Made by a program: the position numbers and the translations under genes. Positions 2,225 to 44,190 of a stretch of 44,943 bases of DNA are shown piece by piece; the stretch's first letter is position 1, and each line of letters begins with the position of its first letter. This DNA is from Capsulimonadales bacterium (GTDB lineage: Bacteria > Armatimonadota > Armatimonadia > Armatimonadales > Armatimonadaceae). Under the pieces are notes generated by a model that was not told the DNA's origin, ran no database searches, and saw only the letters and a list, made by a program, of their open reading frames with translations. Location of the stretch: the NCBI GenBank assembly GCA_033762295.1, contig JANRLW010000035.1:1-44943 (forward strand), in the 5' to 3' direction.

Positions 2225-3368
2225 TTGCTGAGTGAACTGTCAAAGGATATGCAGAGGCTTGGTGAGCGCGTCGTAGAGCTGGGTGGTCATCTTTGACATC
2301 ACCCAACGCGAAAAAGAGTTAGCCCTCCTGGAGGCGCAGTCCGAACAACCGGGCCTCTGGGACGATACGGCGCGGGCGCAGGCGGTGATGCGCAAACTGT
2401 CGCGGGTGAAACTGGACGTCCAGCCCTACCGCGAACTGGTCAAGCGTTTCGAGGATGCTCAGGTGCTGCTGGAGATGGCGCTGGCCGAAAAGGACGGCGA
2501 CCAGTTCGAGGCGGAGATCGAGGCCGAACTGAAAGGCATGCTGGCCGACGTGGAAGCGCAGGAGATCAAAGCTCTCCTGTCGGGTCCGCACGATGCCGCC
2601 TCCGCTTATCTTGAATTGAAGCCGGGGGCCGGTGGGACCGAGGCCTGTGACTGGGCACAGATGCTGTTGCGAATGTATCTGCGCTGGGCGCAGGATCACG
2701 GATTCAAGGCGGAGATCGTGGACGAACTGCCGGGGGATGTCGCCGGTATCTCGTCGGCGACCGTGCGCGTGGACGGACCGAACGCCTACGGTTTTTTGAA
2801 GTCCGAGCACGGGGTCCATCGACTGGTGCGCATCTCGCCGTTCAATGCGAACGGCAAGCGGCAGACGTCGTTCGCGGCGGTGGAAGTCGCTCCCCAGATC
2901 GAGGACGACTCGGAGATCGTGATCGATCCGGACGATCTGGAGATCGATACCTATCGCGCGAGCGGCGCGGGCGGCCAGCACGTCAACAAGACGTCCTCGG
3001 CGGTCCGGATCACGCACCGTCCGACCGGTATCGTCGTGCAGTGTCAGAATGAGCGGTCGCAGTTGCAGAACAAAGAGGTCGCGATGAAGATTCTCGCCGG
3101 GCGACTGGCGGAATTGAAGGAGCGCGAGGAGGAGGCCAAAATGGCCGCCATTAAAGGGGAGCAACGCGCGATCGAGTTCGGGAGTCAGATCCGGAACTAT
3201 ACGTTTCAGCCGTACACTCTGGTGAAGGATGTACGGACCGGCGCGGAAAGCGGAGATATACAGCGCGTGATGAACGGGGATATCGACCCGTTTGTGACCG
3301 CCTATCTGCGATGGCGCGCCGGTGAAGGAAGAAGCGGAGACGATGGAACGACAACAGACGACGAATAA
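2225..3368 (+). CDS. prfB: Peptide chain release factor 2, with programmed +1 frameshift at 2291-2297
   Basis: Short frame from TTG 2225 (MLSELSKDMQRLGERVVELGGHL) ends at GGT GGT CAT CTT TGA C. The +1 frame carries the SPF and GGQ motifs of RF2. Confidence 0.97.
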
Positions 3369-4032
3369 GCGTCGCAATTTCCGGAGCGGAGCAGGGATTC
3401 TGATCGGATCTCTGCTGCTGACCGGTCTCGGGGCGACCGTTCTGCCGGTCGGCTCCGCCATCGCCGCTCAGGCGACGATCTCGACAGCGAACGTCCGAAC
3501 CGCCGAAACCGAAGCCGGAAACCTTCTGGCTGACGCGGTTCGTAGCGCGGCGGGGGCGGAGATCGGATTTTTTCCGGCAGCGGCCTTCAAACCGGGCGTC
3601 TCGGTCGCCCGACCGGTCACCGCCGCGCAGGCGGCCACTCTGGTCGACCCGCCCACCGATGTCATCGTCGTGCTGAACCTGCGCGGCGATCAGGTCCTGG
3701 CCGCGCTCGAGCGATCCGTTTCGTTCGCGCCGCAGCCCAGCGCCGGCTTTTTGCAGGTTTCGGGCCTGCGATTTTCTTTCGATGTGCGTAAGGAGAGCCA
3801 GAAACGGGTCTCCAATGTCACCGTCAACGACCGTCCGCTGGAATCGGGCCGGGTCTATAAGGTCGCGACCACCCGGCCCCTCGGCAACGGTCAGCAGGGA
3901 TACGGTCGGGTCTGGGATCGCGCCAGCATCGCGTCCGATACGGGCAAGTCGCTGGAAGCCGCCCTCGCCGATTTCGCGCGCGGCGGAACGCTGTCACCGT
4001 CGCTCGATCGGCGGATCACGCAGACCCCCTGA
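3343..4032 (+). CDS. Secreted protein consisting of a 5'-nucleotidase C-terminal domain only
   Basis: Signal peptide, then ETEAGNLLADAVR...FLQVSGLRFSFD...YKVATT...GQQGY, typical of 5_nucleotid_C. ATG 3343 preferred over GTG 3322. Confidence 0.8.
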   Translation: MERQQTTNKRRNFRSGAGILIGSLLLTGLGATVLPVGSAIAAQATISTANVRTAETEAGNLLADAVRSAAGAEIGFFPAAAFKPGVSVARPVTAAQAATLVDPPTDVIVVLNLRGDQVLAALERSVSFAPQPSAGFLQVSGLRFSFDVRKESQKRVSNVTVNDRPLESGRVYKVATTRPLGNGQQGYGRVWDRASIASDTGKSLEAALADFARGGTLSPSLDRRITQTP

Positions 4033-33636: not shown

Positions 33637-34947
33637 ATGGAATCCGCCGCAGGTCATGGCGGGGTCGGTATTCTGCTGACCCTGTTTATCGTTTACGTCG
33701 CCGCTCAGATCGGCGCGGAGGTCGCCGGTCGCCTGCGCCTGCCGTCGGTCGTGGGCGAGATCGCCGCCGGCTGTCTGGTCGGGCCGTCCGTGCTCAACTG
33801 GGTGCATATCAACGAGCCTCTGGAAGTGCTGGCCGAGATCGGCGCGGTCCTGTTGCTCTTCTCGGTGGGCCTGGAAACACGTCTGGCGGATCTACGCCGG
33901 GTGGGCCGGTCGGCCGCTCTCGTCGGAGTGCTCGGGGTGATTTTTCCGTTCGCCCTGGGCGCGTTCTGGGCCTATTTTTCCGGCTTTGAGACGGCGAAGG
34001 CGCTGTTCGTCGCCGCCGCGTTCGTCGCGACGTCCGCGGGCATCACGGCGCGCGTGCTGTCCGATCTGGGCGTTCTCGGCCGAACCGAGTCGCGCGTCAT
34101 CCTGGGCGCGGCGGTGATCGACGATATCCTTGCCATGCTGCTTCTGGGCGTCGTGACCGCCCTTCAGGGGGATGGCGGGACGCGTTCGATCGACTGGGTG
34201 CAACTCGGGCTGGTGCTGGTGCAGGCAATCGGCTTTATCGTCATCGTCGCTCTGGTCGGCACCCGTATCATTCGCAAACGCTCCCGTCTGCTCGATCTGC
34301 CGATCCACCCGCTGTCCCCTCTGACGCTGTCTCTCGCACTCTGTCTCGGGTTGGCGGCGGCGGCGGCCAACCTGGGATTGGCGGCGATCATCGGCGCATT
34401 CCTCGCCGGGACGGTGCTGGCGGAATCGCAGCAACGACTGGCGCTGGAGCGGCAGATTCAGCCGATCATGGCGTTCGTCGTGCCTTTTTTCTTTGTCGTC
34501 ACCGGCGCACAGATCGATTTGAAGGCTCTGTCCAACGGACCGGCCTTACTTTCGCTGGGCATCGTCACGGCCCTCGCGGTGGTCAGTAAACTGGTGGGCG
34601 GCGGACTGGGTGCGCTTTCCCTGGGGAAGAGACGCGCTCTGATCGTCGGCTGGGGAATGGTCCCTCGTGGTGAGGTGGGGATCATCGTGGCCAGCCTGGG
34701 CCGGGACGCCGGTGTGTTTACCGGACGGACGTACGCCTTGATTATCGCGATGTCGCTTCTGACATCGGTGATCGCTCCGCCCGTACTCAATTTTCTTCTG
34801 GCGAAGGAAAAGGCGAAGGATTCGGAACCTCCGCCGTCCCCGGACACGAGCGAGGACGGCCATGAGGACGGTTCGGAACCGTTCCATCTCCATCGGGTGG
34901 ACGAGTGCGGATACGACCGTCCCGCCGCGGAGGTCAGGCGCTCCTGA
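33637..34947 (+). CDS. Cation:proton antiporter (CPA2/NapA-like)
   Basis: LFSVGLET, ATSAGIT, AAVIDD, IIGAF and GMVPRGEVG. Confidence 0.93.
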   Translation: MESAAGHGGVGILLTLFIVYVAAQIGAEVAGRLRLPSVVGEIAAGCLVGPSVLNWVHINEPLEVLAEIGAVLLLFSVGLETRLADLRRVGRSAALVGVLGVIFPFALGAFWAYFSGFETAKALFVAAAFVATSAGITARVLSDLGVLGRTESRVILGAAVIDDILAMLLLGVVTALQGDGGTRSIDWVQLGLVLVQAIGFIVIVALVGTRIIRKRSRLLDLPIHPLSPLTLSLALCLGLAAAAANLGLAAIIGAFLAGTVLAESQQRLALERQIQPIMAFVVPFFFVVTGAQIDLKALSNGPALLSLGIVTALAVVSKLVGGGLGALSLGKRRALIVGWGMVPRGEVGIIVASLGRDAGVFTGRTYALIIAMSLLTSVIAPPVLNFLLAKEKAKDSEPPPSPDTSEDGHEDGSEPFHLHRVDECGYDRPAAEVRRS

Positions 34948-36161
34948 TGTCCGACCCCGTCTCCGCTCCCGTCTCCGCCCCGCTCCGGGAGATCGCCGGT
35001 GTGTTCCTCCGCCTGGGCTTTACGGCCTTCGGCGGACCGGCGGCGCACATCGCCCTGATGAAGGAGGAGTTCGTCGTCCGGCGAAAATGGCTGACGGAGG
35101 CGGAGTTTCTCGATCTGCTGGGGGCGACCAACCTGATTCCGGGACCGAACTCCACGGAGATGGCGATCCATCTCGGCTACCGGCGCGGCGGTTGGATCGG
35201 TCTGATCGTTGCCGGCCTCTGCTTCCTCCTCCCGGCGGCCCTGATCGTTTCCGGGTTCGCCTGGGCGTACGTCCGGTTCGGCGCGTTACCCACGGTCGCG
35301 GGTCTGCTTCAGGCGGTCAAACCGGTCGTGGTGGCGGTGGTTCTGCAGGCGATGGCGGGGCTGGTTCGTCCCGCTCTGAAAAACGTGCCGCTGACGGTCC
35401 TTGGCATCGCCGTGCTGGGCGCGGCGCTTTTCGGTCTCGCCCCCCCTTACCTCCTGTTCGGCGCGGGCTTCCTCACCGGTCTCGCGCGCTGGTGGCAGGG
35501 CGAGTCGTCCCCGGTGCGGCGTTCGCCGGGTTCCCTGCTGGCCCTGCTCGCCGGTGTGGCGGGAATGATCGGCTTGCCCGTCCTGCTGACCTTCGTTTCG
35601 TTCTCTTCCCGAGGAGCGGTTCCGCTCTCCTCCGGAGCGCTGTTCGCCTTCTTTCTGAAGGTCGGCGCGACCCTCTACGGCAGCGGTTACGTGCTTCTTT
35701 CCTTCCTGCGGGAGGAGCCGGTACTGCGCTGGCGGTGGCTGACCGAGGGGCAACTGCTCGACGCGGTCGCCGTCGGGCAGGTGACGCCGGGGCCGGTCTT
35801 CACGACGGCGACATTTATCGGATACGTTCTCAGCGGACCCTTCGGAGCGTTCCTGGCGACCCTTGGCATCTTTCTGCCCTCGTTCGTCTTCGTCGCCCTC
35901 AGTGGTCCGCTGATCCCCCGCCTGCGACAATCGCCGGTCATGGCGGCGTTCCTCGATGGGGTCAATGTCGCCGCTCTCGCACTCCTGGCGACGGTTGTCT
36001 GGGAGACGGCCCGGACCGCGTTCACCGGCCCGTTCACCGTCTCGCTGGCCATCCTGAGCGCGGTTCTCCTGATCCGTTACCGCGTCAACTCCGCCTGGTT
36101 GTTGCTGGCGGCGGCGGGGTTCGGCGCGGTCTGCGGATGGCTCGGTCTTCGCGTCTCCTGA
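34947..36161 (+). CDS. chrA: Chromate efflux transporter (long-chain CHR)
   Basis: LGFTAFGGP, PGPNS, YGSGYV and QVTPGP; TGATG coupling to the antiporter gene. Confidence 0.93.
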   Translation: MSDPVSAPVSAPLREIAGVFLRLGFTAFGGPAAHIALMKEEFVVRRKWLTEAEFLDLLGATNLIPGPNSTEMAIHLGYRRGGWIGLIVAGLCFLLPAALIVSGFAWAYVRFGALPTVAGLLQAVKPVVVAVVLQAMAGLVRPALKNVPLTVLGIAVLGAALFGLAPPYLLFGAGFLTGLARWWQGESSPVRRSPGSLLALLAGVAGMIGLPVLLTFVSFSSRGAVPLSSGALFAFFLKVGATLYGSGYVLLSFLREEPVLRWRWLTEGQLLDAVAVGQVTPGPVFTTATFIGYVLSGPFGAFLATLGIFLPSFVFVALSGPLIPRLRQSPVMAAFLDGVNVAALALLATVVWETARTAFTGPFTVSLAILSAVLLIRYRVNSAWLLLAAAGFGAVCGWLGLRVS

Positions 36162-37466: not shown

Positions 37467-38150
37467 ATGCCTGCCGCGACCCGCTTTGTGACCCTCAGTT
37501 TCGACGACGGTTTTCGGACGTCGTCCGTCCGGACCGCCGAACTGTACGAACGGTTCGGCCTGCGCGCGGAGTTCCATGTCGTCGCCACCTACGGACTTCG
37601 CGATCCGGTCACCTTCGGCGACTGGGCTCTGTGGAACGATCTGGCGGCGCGCGGCCATGTTATCCACCCCCACGGATACGACCATACCAACAAGACGAGC
37701 CTCCCGACGGAACGGGCGCAGGATTCGATTCTGCAATGTCTGGAGGAGTTTCAGGCCCACCTGCACGGTTTCGATCCGGCGCAGGCGATCTTCGCGTTTC
37801 CGTACAATGCGTCCACTCCGGAACTCGAGGCATGGCTTCCAACCGTCGTAAGGGCGTTCCGGACCGGCCACACCGCGCTTAACCCCCTGCCGTCCGCAGG
37901 CACGGTGCGGCTGACGACCGGCGGATGGGAGGACGCCGAACCGTGGCTGGATCGGTGTACCGAGGACCTTCTGGCCCTGAACGAAGGCTGGCTCATCTAC
38001 TGTGCGCACGGCCTGGACGGCGAGGGTTGGGGGCCGTTGCGACACGACTATCTCGAACGTCTGCTGGAAAGGCTGGTCGCGACGGAGAACCTGGAAATAC
38101 TGCCGGCCCGTGACATTCTCCGCCGCTTCGATGCCGCTCCGGAAGCCTAG
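37467..38150 (+). CDS. Polysaccharide deacetylase family (CE4-like) protein
   Basis: LSFDDG, HGYDH and FAFPY. Confidence 0.85.
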   Translation: MPAATRFVTLSFDDGFRTSSVRTAELYERFGLRAEFHVVATYGLRDPVTFGDWALWNDLAARGHVIHPHGYDHTNKTSLPTERAQDSILQCLEEFQAHLHGFDPAQAIFAFPYNASTPELEAWLPTVVRAFRTGHTALNPLPSAGTVRLTTGGWEDAEPWLDRCTEDLLALNEGWLIYCAHGLDGEGWGPLRHDYLERLLERLVATENLEILPARDILRRFDAAPEA

Positions 38151-38836
38151 TCGGCTTCCAGCGCCTTGCGGATCGCCGCCTCCACCGTCGCCGGACGGAC
38201 TTTCCCGGACCAGGCGTCGATGATCCGCCCGTCGCGCACCAGCAGGACGGTCGGCAGCGATTTGACGCCCCACTGTTTCCAAACGTCGCCCGAATCGATG
38301 AGCATCGGGTAACTGAACCGGGTCTTGCTTTTCGCCAGGAAGGGCGCGACCTTTTTTGCGCCTTCCTCATCGATGGAGATGCCGACCACGGAGAAACGCC
38401 CGTCCGCGCCGAGCCGTTCGTGCAGTTTTTGCAGTTCGGGCATGGCTTTGACGCACGGTCCGCACCAGGTCGCCCAGAAATCCACGAGCAGCACCCGGTT
38501 TTTCATCAGTTGCTCCGACGTGATCGTCTCGCCGGCAACGGTTTTCAGGGCGAACGCCGGGGCGGGCCGGGGCAATGGGGCGGGCAGGTAGGCGTCCGGA
38601 TTCTTGACGAAGGCATCGATCTCCCGTCGGTTGCAGAAGTAATAGGTCTTGCCTCCGTACGCGACGCCGCCCGCCGGTTTCTCCTCGCCATGCTCCTCGC
38701 CGCCCTGGGAGCAGACGAGGCAGACGGCCTTTTTCGGCAGATTTTCCCGGACCATGACCGGGCGATCCTGCGCCCGCGCCATCGTGGACAGCGAACACAG
38801 GCAGGCGGCGGCGATGGCCGCTCCGATTTCTCTCAT
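38147..38836 (-). CDS. Exported TlpA-family redoxin with N-terminal YHS/TRASH metal-binding domain
   Basis: Signal peptide; CLVC...YGGKTYYFC...FVKNPDAY (YHS); DFWATWCGPC and LPT (TlpA). Confidence 0.88.
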   Translation of the reverse strand: MREIGAAIAAACLCSLSTMARAQDRPVMVRENLPKKAVCLVCSQGGEEHGEEKPAGGVAYGGKTYYFCNRREIDAFVKNPDAYLPAPLPRPAPAFALKTVAGETITSEQLMKNRVLLVDFWATWCGPCVKAMPELQKLHERLGADGRFSVVGISIDEEGAKKVAPFLAKSKTRFSYPMLIDSGDVWKQWGVKSLPTVLLVRDGRIIDAWSGKVRPATVEAAIRKALEAD

Positions 38837-38848
38837 GATCGTTCCCTT

Positions 38849-39538
38849 TCAGAAGTTTTGCGCGAAGGCGAACCCGATTCGCCGATTGAACGGCGCCACC
38901 AGCGAAAAGGAGCGGCCCGTTCCGTCGAACCAGGAAAGCGTCGTATGACCGTATTTGCCGTCGCACATCGGAATCAGCACCAGGTCGTCTCGCAGGGCGA
39001 CGCTCGCCCCGAACGGCACCAGCACCTCACGCCCCCATTCCGAGTAGGACAGCCCGATATACGGGGCGAATCGTCCGCTCTCCCCGCCGATCTGTTTCTG
39101 GGCGGTGACGAAATAGGCCATTCCGGACGGGGTTCCGATCCGGTCGCTGGAGAACCCGGCCACGATTCCGGGGCGACGGTCATCTTCCGTCCGCACGAAC
39201 CAGTTGCCGATAGGATTGGCCTTTTCTTCCGGCGCGAGCGGATTGTACTCGATCCCGAGTTGCAGACGCGGCGAGAGCCGCGCCGACAGAGTCGTGCGCC
39301 AGCGGGGCCGTTCCTGCCGGGTATCGGCATAGCGCTGTGCGAACTGCCATCGTCCCTGAACGCCGCTCGCACGGAGCGGCGACCCTTCGCCGGGTCAGCC
39401 CGTTCACGGGGGAAGGGTCGACCGCAGTCGGTCTCGCTCATCGGGTCCCTGAGCGAACGCGGCGACGGGCAGCAGGAAGACACCGCCGAAGGTAACGAGA
39501 ACGACGGCAACGACGGCAGGACCGGACATGGTCCGCAT
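38849..39538 (-). CDS. Predicted selenoprotein (229 aa): signal peptide, UxxU motif (Sec45, Sec48), beta-barrel-like domain ending in Phe
   Basis: GAGG RBS and ATG 39538. In-frame TGA at 39404-39406 and 39395-39397 (CCG TGA ACG GGC TGA CCC). The same frame then stays open to 38849, with alternating beta-strand patterns and C-terminal FAFAQNF. Confidence 0.72.
39361..39381 (-). promoter_or_regulatory. Candidate bacterial SECIS hairpin
   Basis: mRNA CGCCGCUC-CGUGC-GAGCGGCG: 8-bp stem, loop with GU. The loop starts 21 nt after the second UGA and 30 nt after the first. Confidence 0.55.
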
Positions 39539-39570
39539 GGTTTTCCTCGGGATGCGGGGAGCGAAAGACG

Positions 39571-39915
39571 TCATTTGCCGGAGACGAAGGCCGCGATCCC
39601 GGCAAGGGCTTCGGGCCGGACTCGACAACGGACGACTCGCCCTTGCCGTTCGGTGGTGATCAGGCCCGCCGCTCGCAACTCGTTCAGGTGGTGTGTCAGA
39701 GTGGACGGAGCGCAGGGAACCACACAGCGGATACGGCAGGCGGTCACGCCGCCCGCCCGGTCGTCGTCGCCTTCGGCGTTACAGCAGGTTCCCTGCTCGG
39801 TATCGTAACCGCAGGTCGGCCCGCAGCAACGGATGCACCGGAAGACCGCCAGACGGGTCGGATCGGCGAGCGCCTTAAAGATCGCGGAAAGGTCGAGTGT
39901 GGGTTCGTCGGCCAT
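39571..39915 (-). CDS. ArsR/SmtB family repressor with Cys-rich insertion (10 Cys)
   Basis: FKALADPTRL and STLTHHLNELRAAGLI...RQGR; insertion CIRCCGPTC...GTCC. Alternative start ATG 39918. Confidence 0.92.
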   Translation of the reverse strand: MADEPTLDLSAIFKALADPTRLAVFRCIRCCGPTCGYDTEQGTCCNAEGDDDRAGGVTACRIRCVVPCAPSTLTHHLNELRAAGLITTERQGRVVRCRVRPEALAGIAAFVSGK

Positions 39916-39920
39916 CATTT

Positions 39921-39961
39921 CCTTTCGATGGCTATCGAAATATTCGACAACCATCGAAAGG
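39921..39961. promoter_or_regulatory. Palindromic operator, probably bound by the ArsR protein
   Basis: CCTTTCGATGG-19 nt-CCATCGAAAGG inverted repeat built from two imperfect TTCGA-N6-TCGAA palindromes; it overlaps the -10 and the RBS. Confidence 0.75.
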
Positions 39962-39987
39962 TTATCATGCCTCGCCGGGTTTGTCCA
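39959..39987 (-). promoter_or_regulatory. Sigma70 promoter of the arsR operon
   Basis: TGGACA-17 nt-TAACCT with extended TG on the minus strand. Confidence 0.6.
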
Positions 39988-42013: not shown

Positions 42014-42844
42014 GTGAATCTTCAACAGCTATTAAATTTTTCCTGGGTTACCGATGCCACGGCCTGGGTCGGTCTTCTGACGCTGGTCGCGCTGGAGATC
42101 GTTCTGGGGATCGACAATATCGTTTTTATTTCGATTCTGTCCGGGAAGCTTCCGGAGGCGGAACAACCACGCGCCCGCAAACTGGGACTGATTCTGGCGG
42201 TGATTCCACGCCTTCTTTTGCTCCTGTTCCTTCCGATCGTTCTCAGTCTGGACCAGCCGATCATCCGGCTGCCGTTCGAACTTCCGGGGAACCACGAGGG
42301 GCCGCTCGGCCTCTCGATCCAGGACCTGATCATCTTTGTCGGCGGTCTCTTCCTGCTGGCGAAGGCGACACGCGAGATCCATCATAACCTGGAGGGCGAG
42401 GAGCATCACGTCGATGAAGCCGGTGTCGTAACGAAAAAAACGGCCTCCTTTTCGTCGGTCATTGCCTCCGTCATGCTTCTGAACATCGTCTTCTCGCTGG
42501 ACTCGATCATTACGGCGATCGGGATGGTGCCCAAGGAACAGATCACGGTCATGGTGCTGGCCGTCCTCGTCTCCACGGCGATCATGGCGTTTGCGGTCAA
42601 CTCGGTCAGCAAGTTCGTCGAGCGACACCCGACGGTCAAGATGCTCGCTCTCTCGTTCCTGTTGCTGATCGGGATGACGCTTGTCGCCGAGGGCCTGCAT
42701 GTCGAGATTCCGAAGGGTTACGTCTACTTCGCGATGGGCTTTTCCGTCTTCGTCGAGATGCTCAACCTCCGGGCGGCGAAAAGCAAGAAGACCGCGCCGG
42801 TCCAGCTTCGCACCACGTCGCCCGATCAGTATCTGCGTCCCTGA
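42014..42844 (+). CDS. TerC family membrane protein
   Basis: LEIVLGIDN, KATREIH, VFSLDSIITAIG, LALSFL and PKGYVYFAM.FS..VE.LN. Confidence 0.94.
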   Translation: MNLQQLLNFSWVTDATAWVGLLTLVALEIVLGIDNIVFISILSGKLPEAEQPRARKLGLILAVIPRLLLLLFLPIVLSLDQPIIRLPFELPGNHEGPLGLSIQDLIIFVGGLFLLAKATREIHHNLEGEEHHVDEAGVVTKKTASFSSVIASVMLLNIVFSLDSIITAIGMVPKEQITVMVLAVLVSTAIMAFAVNSVSKFVERHPTVKMLALSFLLLIGMTLVAEGLHVEIPKGYVYFAMGFSVFVEMLNLRAAKSKKTAPVQLRTTSPDQYLRP

Positions 42845-43101: not shown

Positions 43102-44190
43102 ATGAATAGGGCCGTTCGCAGGGAGTTCGTCGCCTCCGCAATCATTCTGGCGATTCTGGGCGCAGGCTCAACGTCGTACGCGCAGGCGGTCATCCGCAAC
43201 CAGACGACGTACAACAGCTTGACGGCGATCGCCGGCAACAATCCGAACCAGTCGGATGTCACCGGCAATATCCTCACCCTGACGGGACACGGGGTCGAAC
43301 CGCTCAAAAACGTTCAGACCGGTCCGGCGGCGTATGCGTTCCGCTTCGGCAGCGACGGCACCACGGACGGTTCCGTCGATCCGGCGTTGGGAACGGCCAA
43401 TGTCGGCAACAATACGCTGTCCACCATTCTCATTGCCGACGACCTCTGGCTTCAGGCGGACACGACCGGTCTGGGCAGCGCGCGGCTGGCATCGGTCAAC
43501 CTGACCGGCATGCAGTTTCTGTTGAGCAATGCGAACGCGGAAGCGATCACGGTCAATGCCCATGTCCGCCTCTACGACACCCTGGCGACCGGTTTTGCCG
43601 GAGACCTGGTCGGTTCGTACGACCTCGGCGCGGTCACGCTGAACGGCAACGGCGGCGGCTACGCCAGCGTCACCCAGTTAAGCGTCCCCTCCTCCTCCTT
43701 CGCTCTCGATCCGGTGTCGCTCGCCGGTTCGACCTTCGATCGTGTGAGTGCGGGGAGGTATGAAAAGCGTATCTGGGCCGGTCTTTTCTTCACCGCCGAT
43801 GCCACGACAACCACAACCACCCAGTTGTCCAACATCGGTTCGGTCGTCTTCGACCCGAACACGGCGGTGCTTTCGGAAAACGTCTCCTCGAAAGGTACCT
43901 TCTTCGATGTCGGTCGCAGCAACGATCAGATCGTCGGGGACGATATCAGCGGGGCGAACAACGGTCCTCAGGTGAACTTTTCCTATACACAGGACTTCGA
44001 CGAGCTTTTCTATACCTCACTGTTCAAAACCTGGTCGCTCGATACGAACAACCAGGGTCAGGGTCCGGAGGCGAACTTTGCCTGGCTTTTCCGTGCCGAT
44101 ATTGTCATCACGCCGGAACCGGGAACTGTCTCTCTGCTGATTCTGGGCGCGCTTCCGGCGGCGATCCTGATTCGCCGTCGCCGCCGCTGA
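43102..44190 (+). CDS. PEP-CTERM sorting-domain surface protein
   Basis: Signal peptide; C-terminal TPEPGTVSLLILGALPAAILIRRRRR. Confidence 0.92.
   Translation: MNRAVRREFVASAIILAILGAGSTSYAQAVIRNQTTYNSLTAIAGNNPNQSDVTGNILTLTGHGVEPLKNVQTGPAAYAFRFGSDGTTDGSVDPALGTANVGNNTLSTILIADDLWLQADTTGLGSARLASVNLTGMQFLLSNANAEAITVNAHVRLYDTLATGFAGDLVGSYDLGAVTLNGNGGGYASVTQLSVPSSSFALDPVSLAGSTFDRVSAGRYEKRIWAGLFFTADATTTTTTQLSNIGSVVFDPNTAVLSENVSSKGTFFDVGRSNDQIVGDDISGANNGPQVNFSYTQDFDELFYTSLFKTWSLDTNNQGQGPEANFAWLFRADIVITPEPGTVSLLILGALPAAILIRRRRR

Follow-up and report, generated by a model that had tools for sequence, protein, structure and literature searches.

An operon in a Capsulimonadales bacterium of the Armatimonadota (assembly GCA_033762295.1, contig JANRLW010000035.1, analysed as one window of 44,943 nucleotides (nt)) encodes an outer-membrane beta-barrel that carries a predicted pair of selenocysteines (Sec, U) in a UxxU motif. 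The operon is regulated, and its core consists of this double-Sec barrel and a dedicated partner in which a YHS domain is fused to a TlpA-type thioredoxin. On comparative sequence grounds, both in-frame TGAs of the barrel gene are almost certainly decoded as Sec. The barrel gene lies between genes for an ArsR repressor and the YHS-TlpA, all on the minus strand with spacers of 32 and 12 nt, and the three very likely form a single operon. These coordinates agree exactly with the co-directional trio behind a promoter and operator described in the original prediction, which had been made from the letters alone; the gene identities given there (Cys-rich ArsR, UxxU barrel, YHS-TlpA) are upheld. We tentatively propose, at slightly less than even confidence, that the operon serves the envelope under soft-metal stress, as a module repressed by ArsR and centred on the barrel. 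Its features, in window coordinates, are as follows.

39959-39987, minus strand: sigma70-type promoter, with the -35 box TGGACA at 39987-39982, a spacer of 17 nt and the -10 box TAACCT at 39964-39959.
39924-39958, no strand assigned: tandem operator of two TTCGA-N6-TCGAA palindromes, lying after the -10 box and before the ArsR start.
39571-39918, minus strand: ArsR/SmtB-family repressor of 115 amino acids (aa) with 10 Cys, from NF033788, PF12840 and orthologues.
38849-39538, minus strand: exported, predicted 12-stranded outer-membrane beta-barrel with an N-terminal UxxU arm, a precursor of 229 aa, from AlphaFold2 models and fold matches.
39452-39538, minus strand: the barrel's probable signal peptide (about residues 1-29, with AFA at its end), from its hydrophobic core and homologue leaders; the cleavage site was placed by eye.
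39395-39406, minus strand: UxxU motif, in-frame TGAs at codons 45 (U45, 39406-39404) and 48 (U48, 39397-39395).
39362-39380, minus strand: putative Sec insertion sequence (SECIS) hairpin with a stem of 7-8 base pairs (bp) and the loop CGUGC, from comparative pairing.
38147-38836, minus strand: exported YHS/TRASH domain fused to a TlpA/ResA-type thioredoxin, with PF00578 and PF08534 above cut-off.

In the barrel product the motif reads PP-U-TG-U-PG. Across 103 distinct loci the corresponding codon pair is TGA/TGA in 101, TGC/TGA in one and TGT/TGT in one. TAA and TAG never occur there, whereas the genuine terminal stops of barrel genes (n = 99) comprise 58 TGA, 23 TAA and 18 TAG. UxxU is present at 30 of the 33 genome loci, window included, the remainder being one CxxU, one CxxC and one truncated gene, and at 79 of 80 metagenome loci (78 by script and L099 read from its printed row; L104 starts past the motif). 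The CxxC orthologues make up one well-supported side of the tree, with 10 Cys and 48 Sec rows.

The loop of the SECIS hairpin starts 21 nt past the second UGA and 30 nt past the first, and its G is invariant in the alignment. Among 29 distinct sequences, pairing is kept in 84% of cells versus 41-51% when the pairing is slid, with compensatory change in seven of eight pairs and a covariation score of 0.574 versus 0.13-0.22. Folding of the single sequence was uninformative (z -0.99), and the comparative test is decisive. Bacterial SECIS elements have a stem of 4-16 bp and a loop of 3-9 nt with a G as its first or second nucleotide, and they lie 16-37 nt from the UGA with a minimum free energy of at most -7.5 (PMC13188914; here and below, PMC articles are cited for individual sections). 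Since both UGAs fall inside that 16-37 nt range, one SECIS can serve both, as has been proposed for UXXU hydrogenases (PMC13582414). The hairpin was not found in the Cys form L040. In L023, L037 and L039 it lies about 4 nt nearer the UGAs, and L023 and L037 retain the identical CGUGC loop in a different reading frame, a sign that the RNA itself may be under selection.

The genome encodes selA, selB, selD and tRNA-Sec (selC); selD (G000:C128:21777-22718) is itself a selenoprotein gene, with an in-frame TGA (CAG-U-ASK) and a hairpin downstream. The barrel occurs in 30 of 201 sampled genomes of the phylum, and selA in 29 of these 30 versus 107 of the 201 overall, a comparison in which related genomes are not independent; the one exception without selA, G191, is 86% complete. 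Genome-wide, only 4 of 2098 in-frame TGA-N6-TGA occurrences pass a filter for open frame and hairpin, and two of the four are barrels. The barrel gene thus combines the hallmarks of a bacterial selenoprotein, namely a conserved UGA aligned to Cys, a SECIS and the machinery from selA to selD, in line with its original reading as a UxxU selenoprotein.

Two other readings, decoding of one or both UGAs as Cys through a tRNA-ReC system or termination at them with the gene split in two, are highly improbable. Genomes that encode UXXU hydrogenases, among them five of five Armatimonadota, are enriched in tRNA-ReC (PMC13582414), the present genome is 94% complete, leaving room for a second tRNA, and most database proteins of the barrel family begin after the UGAs. 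However, the sole UCA tRNA found carries G73 and scores 69.9 bits as tRNA-Sec, one cysS and one selB are above cut-off, and a barrel begun past the UGAs would have no signal peptide; the absence of TAA and TAG from these two sites also argues against stops. Two database entries (P0038, P0041) read the motif as W, but a code with TGA as Trp was dropped because normal genes here end in TGA and the tRNA-Trp is CCA. Also set aside was a single fusion with TGA as U across all three genes (an open reading frame (ORF) of 493 aa): the ArsR sits in another frame, barrel orthologues stop with TAA or TAG in 41 of 99 cases, and the YHS-TlpA has its own ribosome-binding site and signal peptide. Two other genomes hold second, weaker tRNA-Sec-like matches (G137:C7:60135 and G083:C202:18665; 57-60 bits), which could be tRNA-ReC-type genes. 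Directly upstream of another barrel (L045:5300-5850, G012:C21), a gene reads GATCPT-U-AISL across a TGA. It looks like an HMA-type CxxU selenoprotein in a barrel operon; the part downstream of its TGA has no Pfam or NCBIfam match.

The barrel fold is well modelled. Two AlphaFold2 models give 12 strands, with predicted local distance difference test (pLDDT) means of 82.4 and 84.6 and predicted template modelling (pTM) scores of 0.77-0.81. A signal peptide, an even number of amphipathic strands with alternating residues, and a C-terminal aromatic residue (Phe, with Phe201 nearly invariant) are as expected of an outer-membrane beta-barrel. The best fold matches are COG4313 (4rl8), KdgM/NanC, FapF and autotransporter barrels (Z 15-16, root-mean-square deviation 2.5-3.9, 8-13% identity), and the second model aligns with their lumenal plugs from about residues 17-20 onward. 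Seven polar residues of the mature model are invariant (R41, R53, E69, D104, R105, D165 and H170). Pfam and NCBIfam returned no match for the window protein and nothing meaningful for 77 members; YjbH (PF06082) did not match the window protein and matched one of the 77 members at E 0.011, and an Atlas feature score of 0.96 to a YjbH cluster reflects a look-alike only.

The family comprises 312 cluster representatives (E <= 0.001) and 548 metagenome stretches. Its Atlas clusters are most frequent in Acidobacteriota and Armatimonadota, taxa beyond Armatimonadota being known from Atlas labels. It is absent from the examined parts of Table 1 of the 119-family selenoprotein catalogue (PMC13188914) and from the passages of PMC9312934 consulted, and a search of the openly licensed PMC and bioRxiv literature, with subscription papers and supplements outside its scope, found no prior description.

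Variants of the barrel occur within and beyond this genome. A second copy in the same genome (L041, G000:C21:1-5300) sits in a larger island that begins with an RGPP leader, a Cys-rich exported protein, a divergent second barrel and an ArsR, and continues with a 52-aa metallothionein-like ORF, a UTGU barrel, a YHS-TlpA, a RAPP leader and a TolC-type gene. The divergent barrel (3173-3877) reads PP-U-PL-U-P, matches the family at 98% in hhalign and has its own hairpin; about 3 kb upstream there is a gene with a resolvase domain. In L040/L059 (G090:C8), P0162, P0179, P0183 and P0189 the barrel is of the Cys form and joined to tandem YHS domains (about 390-420 aa), the L059 form being followed by a stand-alone TlpA. 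Three carriers of the Sec form (G025, G120, G192) also show second, weaker matches in open frames of about 415 aa.

The partner protein carries CLVC (39-42), YYFC (65-68) and WCGPC (124-128). The original description of a YHS/TRASH-TlpA holds for these motifs, with the amendment that only three of the four TRASH-type Cys are present: the YHS ligand set would be C39, C42 and C68, with Glu72 as the fourth ligand. Among 47 partners the fourth position is Glu in 16 and Cys in 31, and the other three Cys are invariant. PF04945 scores 22.7 bits on the window YHS, under its cut-off of 30.3 (E 1e-4), and 31.8 on the L041 orthologue, which is above it. The redoxin fold, WCxxC and export signal, with C97 and C100 invariant in the A5 alignment, mark the remainder as TlpA/ResA-type; ResA and TlpA are the closest solved structures, and the named equivalogs TlpA (NF047696) and ResA stay below cut-off for this protein. 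DsbD is encoded in the genome.

A YHS-TlpA gene lies directly downstream of the barrel at 55 of 67 metagenome loci (those with at least 400 nt downstream), and TlpA is adjacent to the barrel at 18 of 33 genome loci. Several lineages (L022, L031, L035, L037, L040) carry YHS as an N-terminal fusion to the barrel. The barrel plus YHS-TlpA is therefore the widely conserved core; the three-gene synteny first put forward holds for this pair, and the full trio is lineage-limited, with an ArsR specific to the genome's family, taken to be Armatimonadaceae, where its closest named relatives fall. A mirror-tree correlation between barrel and YHS-TlpA (r 0.815) was attributed to shared descent and was not counted as evidence of binding.

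A core of this kind would also fit a redox relay across the outer membrane, in which electrons from TlpA pass to the UxxU arm in the pore and on to external disulfides, polysulfides, peroxides or metal(loid) oxyanions, the ArsR senses thiol or sulfur stress, and nearby metal genes are lineage-specific add-ons. We consider this unlikely. Broad conservation extends only to the barrel and YHS-TlpA, metal transporters were not seen at most metagenome loci, the invariant polar residues could make a catalytic pocket, and the arm aligns with lumenal plugs. Nevertheless, YHS is a metal-binding module, and independent lineages repeatedly show metallothionein-like genes, RAPP leaders and YHS fusions.

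Transcription appears to start from the sigma70-type promoter listed above. A scan for consensus promoters returned no sites, the window promoter being below its threshold; the orthologous ArsRs in L009 and L041 are preceded by TTGACA-17/18-TAACCT, to which TGGACA-17-TAACCT of the window corresponds. The operator palindromes start at 39924 and 39943, 19 nt apart, and an inverted repeat with 27-nt arms, built from both, spans 39913-39969. A single palindrome shows no enrichment in the genome (14 found, 17.5 expected). The tandem form, allowing up to two mismatches, occurs three times, before both ArsR copies and once on C122 within a coding region, the last taken as chance. Orthologous ArsRs are likewise preceded by one or two copies of the palindrome.

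The repressor has Cys in the motifs CIRCC, TCC, C-x3-C and VPC. NF033788 scores 63.5 bits (cut-off 55) on the 127-aa ArsR ORF, which PF12840 also matches, and with the palindromic operator before its own gene this marks an ArsR/SmtB metalloregulator. A longer reading from the ATG at 39954 would start inside the operator and is improbable. The subfamily models CmtR, BigR, TsoR, Rv2640c and SdpR are all far under their cut-offs (TsoR 19.6 versus 115). Nine of 10 close ArsR orthologues within the Armatimonadaceae head a barrel, and the group shares 66-100% identity. The window-type ArsR is restricted to the genome's family, and other leaders take over outside it. At L142 (G223:C3:710291), an ArsR that is 81% identical and shares the tandem operator is followed by a prepilin-like gene in place of a barrel.

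The next-closest ArsR clade (10 loci of the same family, 36-45% identity) heads ArsI/CadI or arsM genes, three ArsI/CadI and one ArsM being confirmed above cut-off among its neighbours. An arsenic or antimony module, with an ArsR that senses As(III) or organoarsenicals and a selenium pair that binds or reduces them in the envelope, would account for this kinship, and the vicinal CC pairs of the ArsR suit As(III). We nevertheless give it only a slim chance: the barrel-linked ArsRs are a separate group with a different operator and metallothionein-like passengers, and no ars gene adjoins any barrel locus scanned.

A role of the operon in soft-metal handling is, by our estimate, fairly likely. 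Metallothionein-like ORFs lie between ArsR and barrel in five of nine ArsR-headed operons, and upstream of the barrel in 13 loci, as compared with 113 that have 500 nt or more of upstream sequence, with duplicates counted. Cys-rich exported RAPP/RGPP ORFs occur in 11 loci, nine upstream and three downstream (L044 has both), the downstream ORF in L041, L042 and L044 preceding an efflux gene. The scan behind these counts gave 14 matches among 114 loci, from which three Cys-poor chance matches were removed; L059 adds one upstream. With their export signal, Cys cluster and terminal RAPP/RGPP, the ORFs resemble the copper-sensing leaders CruR and CutF. CusA/CzcA, Cu- or Cd-type P1B-ATPases, ZIP or a TolC-type exporter are found within about 6 kb at seven of 20 genome loci. 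The metallothionein-like genes, RAPP leaders, CusA/CzcA and P1B-ATPases of relatives favour Cu, Ag, Cd, Zn or Hg stress over Se or Te.

The soft-metal role first suggested thus gains from metal genes that recur around homologues, and its Se/Te and chromate variants find no support because chrA and terC were not found beside homologues. In the window, chrA (34905-36161, PF02417) and terC (42014-42844, PF03741) each lie about 2 kb from the operon on the opposite strand, near it and separately transcribed, as had been noted. Neither was seen in 33 loci (mostly with flanks of 1.5 kb on either side) or in 127 + 70 scanned neighbour proteins, and both were dropped as parts of the system since neither adjoins any homologue scanned.

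CruR-like RAPP leaders immediately upstream in several lineages also bring copper acquisition into view. Here the barrel would be a small channel for Cu import or loading, switched on under Cu limitation, in which selenolates scavenge Cu and YHS-TlpA serves as reductant and chaperone. A TonB importer repressed by Cu is preceded by CruR, and operons of this type can also contain AhpC/TSA genes (PMC9426467); in the fold comparison, the Cu channel PcoB matches weakly (Z 8.1). We regard this as quite improbable, given that ArsR derepression, metallothioneins and efflux pumps point to metal excess, and that CutF-type leaders also activate detoxification genes, often before Cus/Czc efflux (PMC9973294).

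Several observations weigh against a soft-metal stress module. The window copy has no adjacent metallothionein, RAPP leader or metal transporter. Thirteen of the 20 genome loci are without a metal transporter, two of the seven positives (L049, L055) are near-identical, and no heavy-metal transporter was found among the 70 metagenome-locus neighbours scanned (70 picked out of 140). DUF2946 (PF11162) was detected in none of 10 candidate leader ORFs, which had no Pfam match at E <= 1. At 15 of 33 genome loci no TlpA was seen beside the barrel, and members of the ArsR's closest sister clade precede arsenic genes. The UxxU arm has a pLDDT of 45-60, which makes its placement a lead only. Finally, diselenides have a very low redox potential and may resist thioredoxin-type reductants; TlpA could therefore act during biogenesis or on another client.

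With these points in mind, the soft-metal module could operate as follows. ArsR would sit on the tandem palindrome and dissociate once a soft metal, most likely Cu(I)/Ag(I) or Cd/Zn/Hg, occupies its Cys cluster. The single SECIS hairpin would direct Sec into both UGAs, 9 nt apart, a step with strong comparative support. The exported precursor would fold as a 12-stranded barrel, its UxxU-PGEG arm perhaps plugging the lumen from the periplasmic side. By analogy, YHS-TlpA, probably fed by DsbD, would keep or restore the reduced selenium pair; we think it somewhat probable that it acts directly on the arm. TlpA is known to reduce Cu-binding Cys pairs (PMC6669012), and a YHS domain senses Cu (PMC4626032). 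At the outer membrane, the selenolates may then catch metal and swap it with YHS/TRASH, for buffering or for handover to Cus/Czc-type efflux. In this scheme, what is inferred is which metal binds, how TlpA reacts with the arm and which way the metal moves. In a bolder and rather unlikely version, the barrel would be a selenium-gated metal pore, with a diselenide/diselenol plug in the 12-stranded channel switched by the periplasmic YHS-TlpA, so that Cu, Ag or Hg would be bound, reduced and carried through the outer membrane with neither TonB nor an RND pump involved.

Precedents exist for UxxU motifs, for outer-membrane selenoproteins and for TlpA-metal partnerships taken singly; the literature searched does not describe their combination. 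Bacterial UxxU selenoproteins (Prx-like PF00578, NF041115, FmdB-family TIGR02605 and Group 4 [NiFeSe] hydrogenase) likewise have two Sec in place of CxxC and probably one downstream SECIS (PMC13188914; PMC13582414). These are soluble or enzyme folds, whereas the window protein carries the motif on a short arm attached to an outer-membrane barrel, and no known UxxU family model matched the window barrel. Sec also occurs in the outer-membrane beta-barrels of the GSU2204 MtrB/PioB type (NF041027) and the FCYXU TonB-dependent receptor (NF049945), but these are larger and unrelated with one Sec each, and the catalogue sections consulted describe no dedicated YHS-TlpA for them (PMC13188914). The fold-matched barrels share 12 strands and an N-terminal segment in the lumen; the window barrel is much shorter, with a presumed redox or metal function in its UxxU arm.

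Like TlpA with ScoI/CoxB in Bradyrhizobium, or ResA/CcmG, the partner would be a periplasmic thioredoxin that keeps a Cys-type pair reduced so that metal or a cofactor can bind (PMC6669012). In contrast to these, it is apparently soluble after signal cleavage, has its own YHS and would serve an outer-membrane selenoprotein. An ArsR/SmtB repressor over a Cys-rich metallothionein-like gene, as in the ArsR-headed operons above, recalls SmtB-SmtA, although the window copy has no metallothionein. RAPP leaders over the barrel module in relatives recall the copper operons headed by CruR and CutF (PMC9426467; PMC9973294), but without a DUF2946 match. The Tso operon with TsoR is also a selenoprotein operon headed by an ArsR; no Tso genes are found here.

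These results add a widespread selenoprotein family that annotation has cut short and that is missing from the 2026 catalogue as consulted, with two Sec on an outer-membrane channel, a location with few known selenoproteins. They also provide a compact natural test of one bacterial SECIS that would decode two closely spaced UGAs. Aerobic, culturable relatives such as Armatimonas offer experimental handles, namely a repressor, an operator and a candidate reductase, which permit direct tests of envelope diselenide function and of the inducing metal. The operon points to an undescribed selenium-based handling of toxic soft metals in the bacterial envelope. If the selenium-gated pore were true, it would be a new class of envelope metal handling over several phyla, masked by mis-annotation of the double UGA.

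No plasmid match was found. Elsewhere in the window, a Na+/H+ antiporter gene overlaps chrA in a separate two-gene unit (33637-36161, plus strand), and terC is preceded by a PHP-family gene; neither the antiporter-chrA unit nor terC is linked to the operon in homologues. On the plus strand at 43102-44190, an exported 362-aa protein without a Pfam match ends in TPEPGT, a hydrophobic stretch and RRRRR, a tail which we take to be PEP-CTERM-like.

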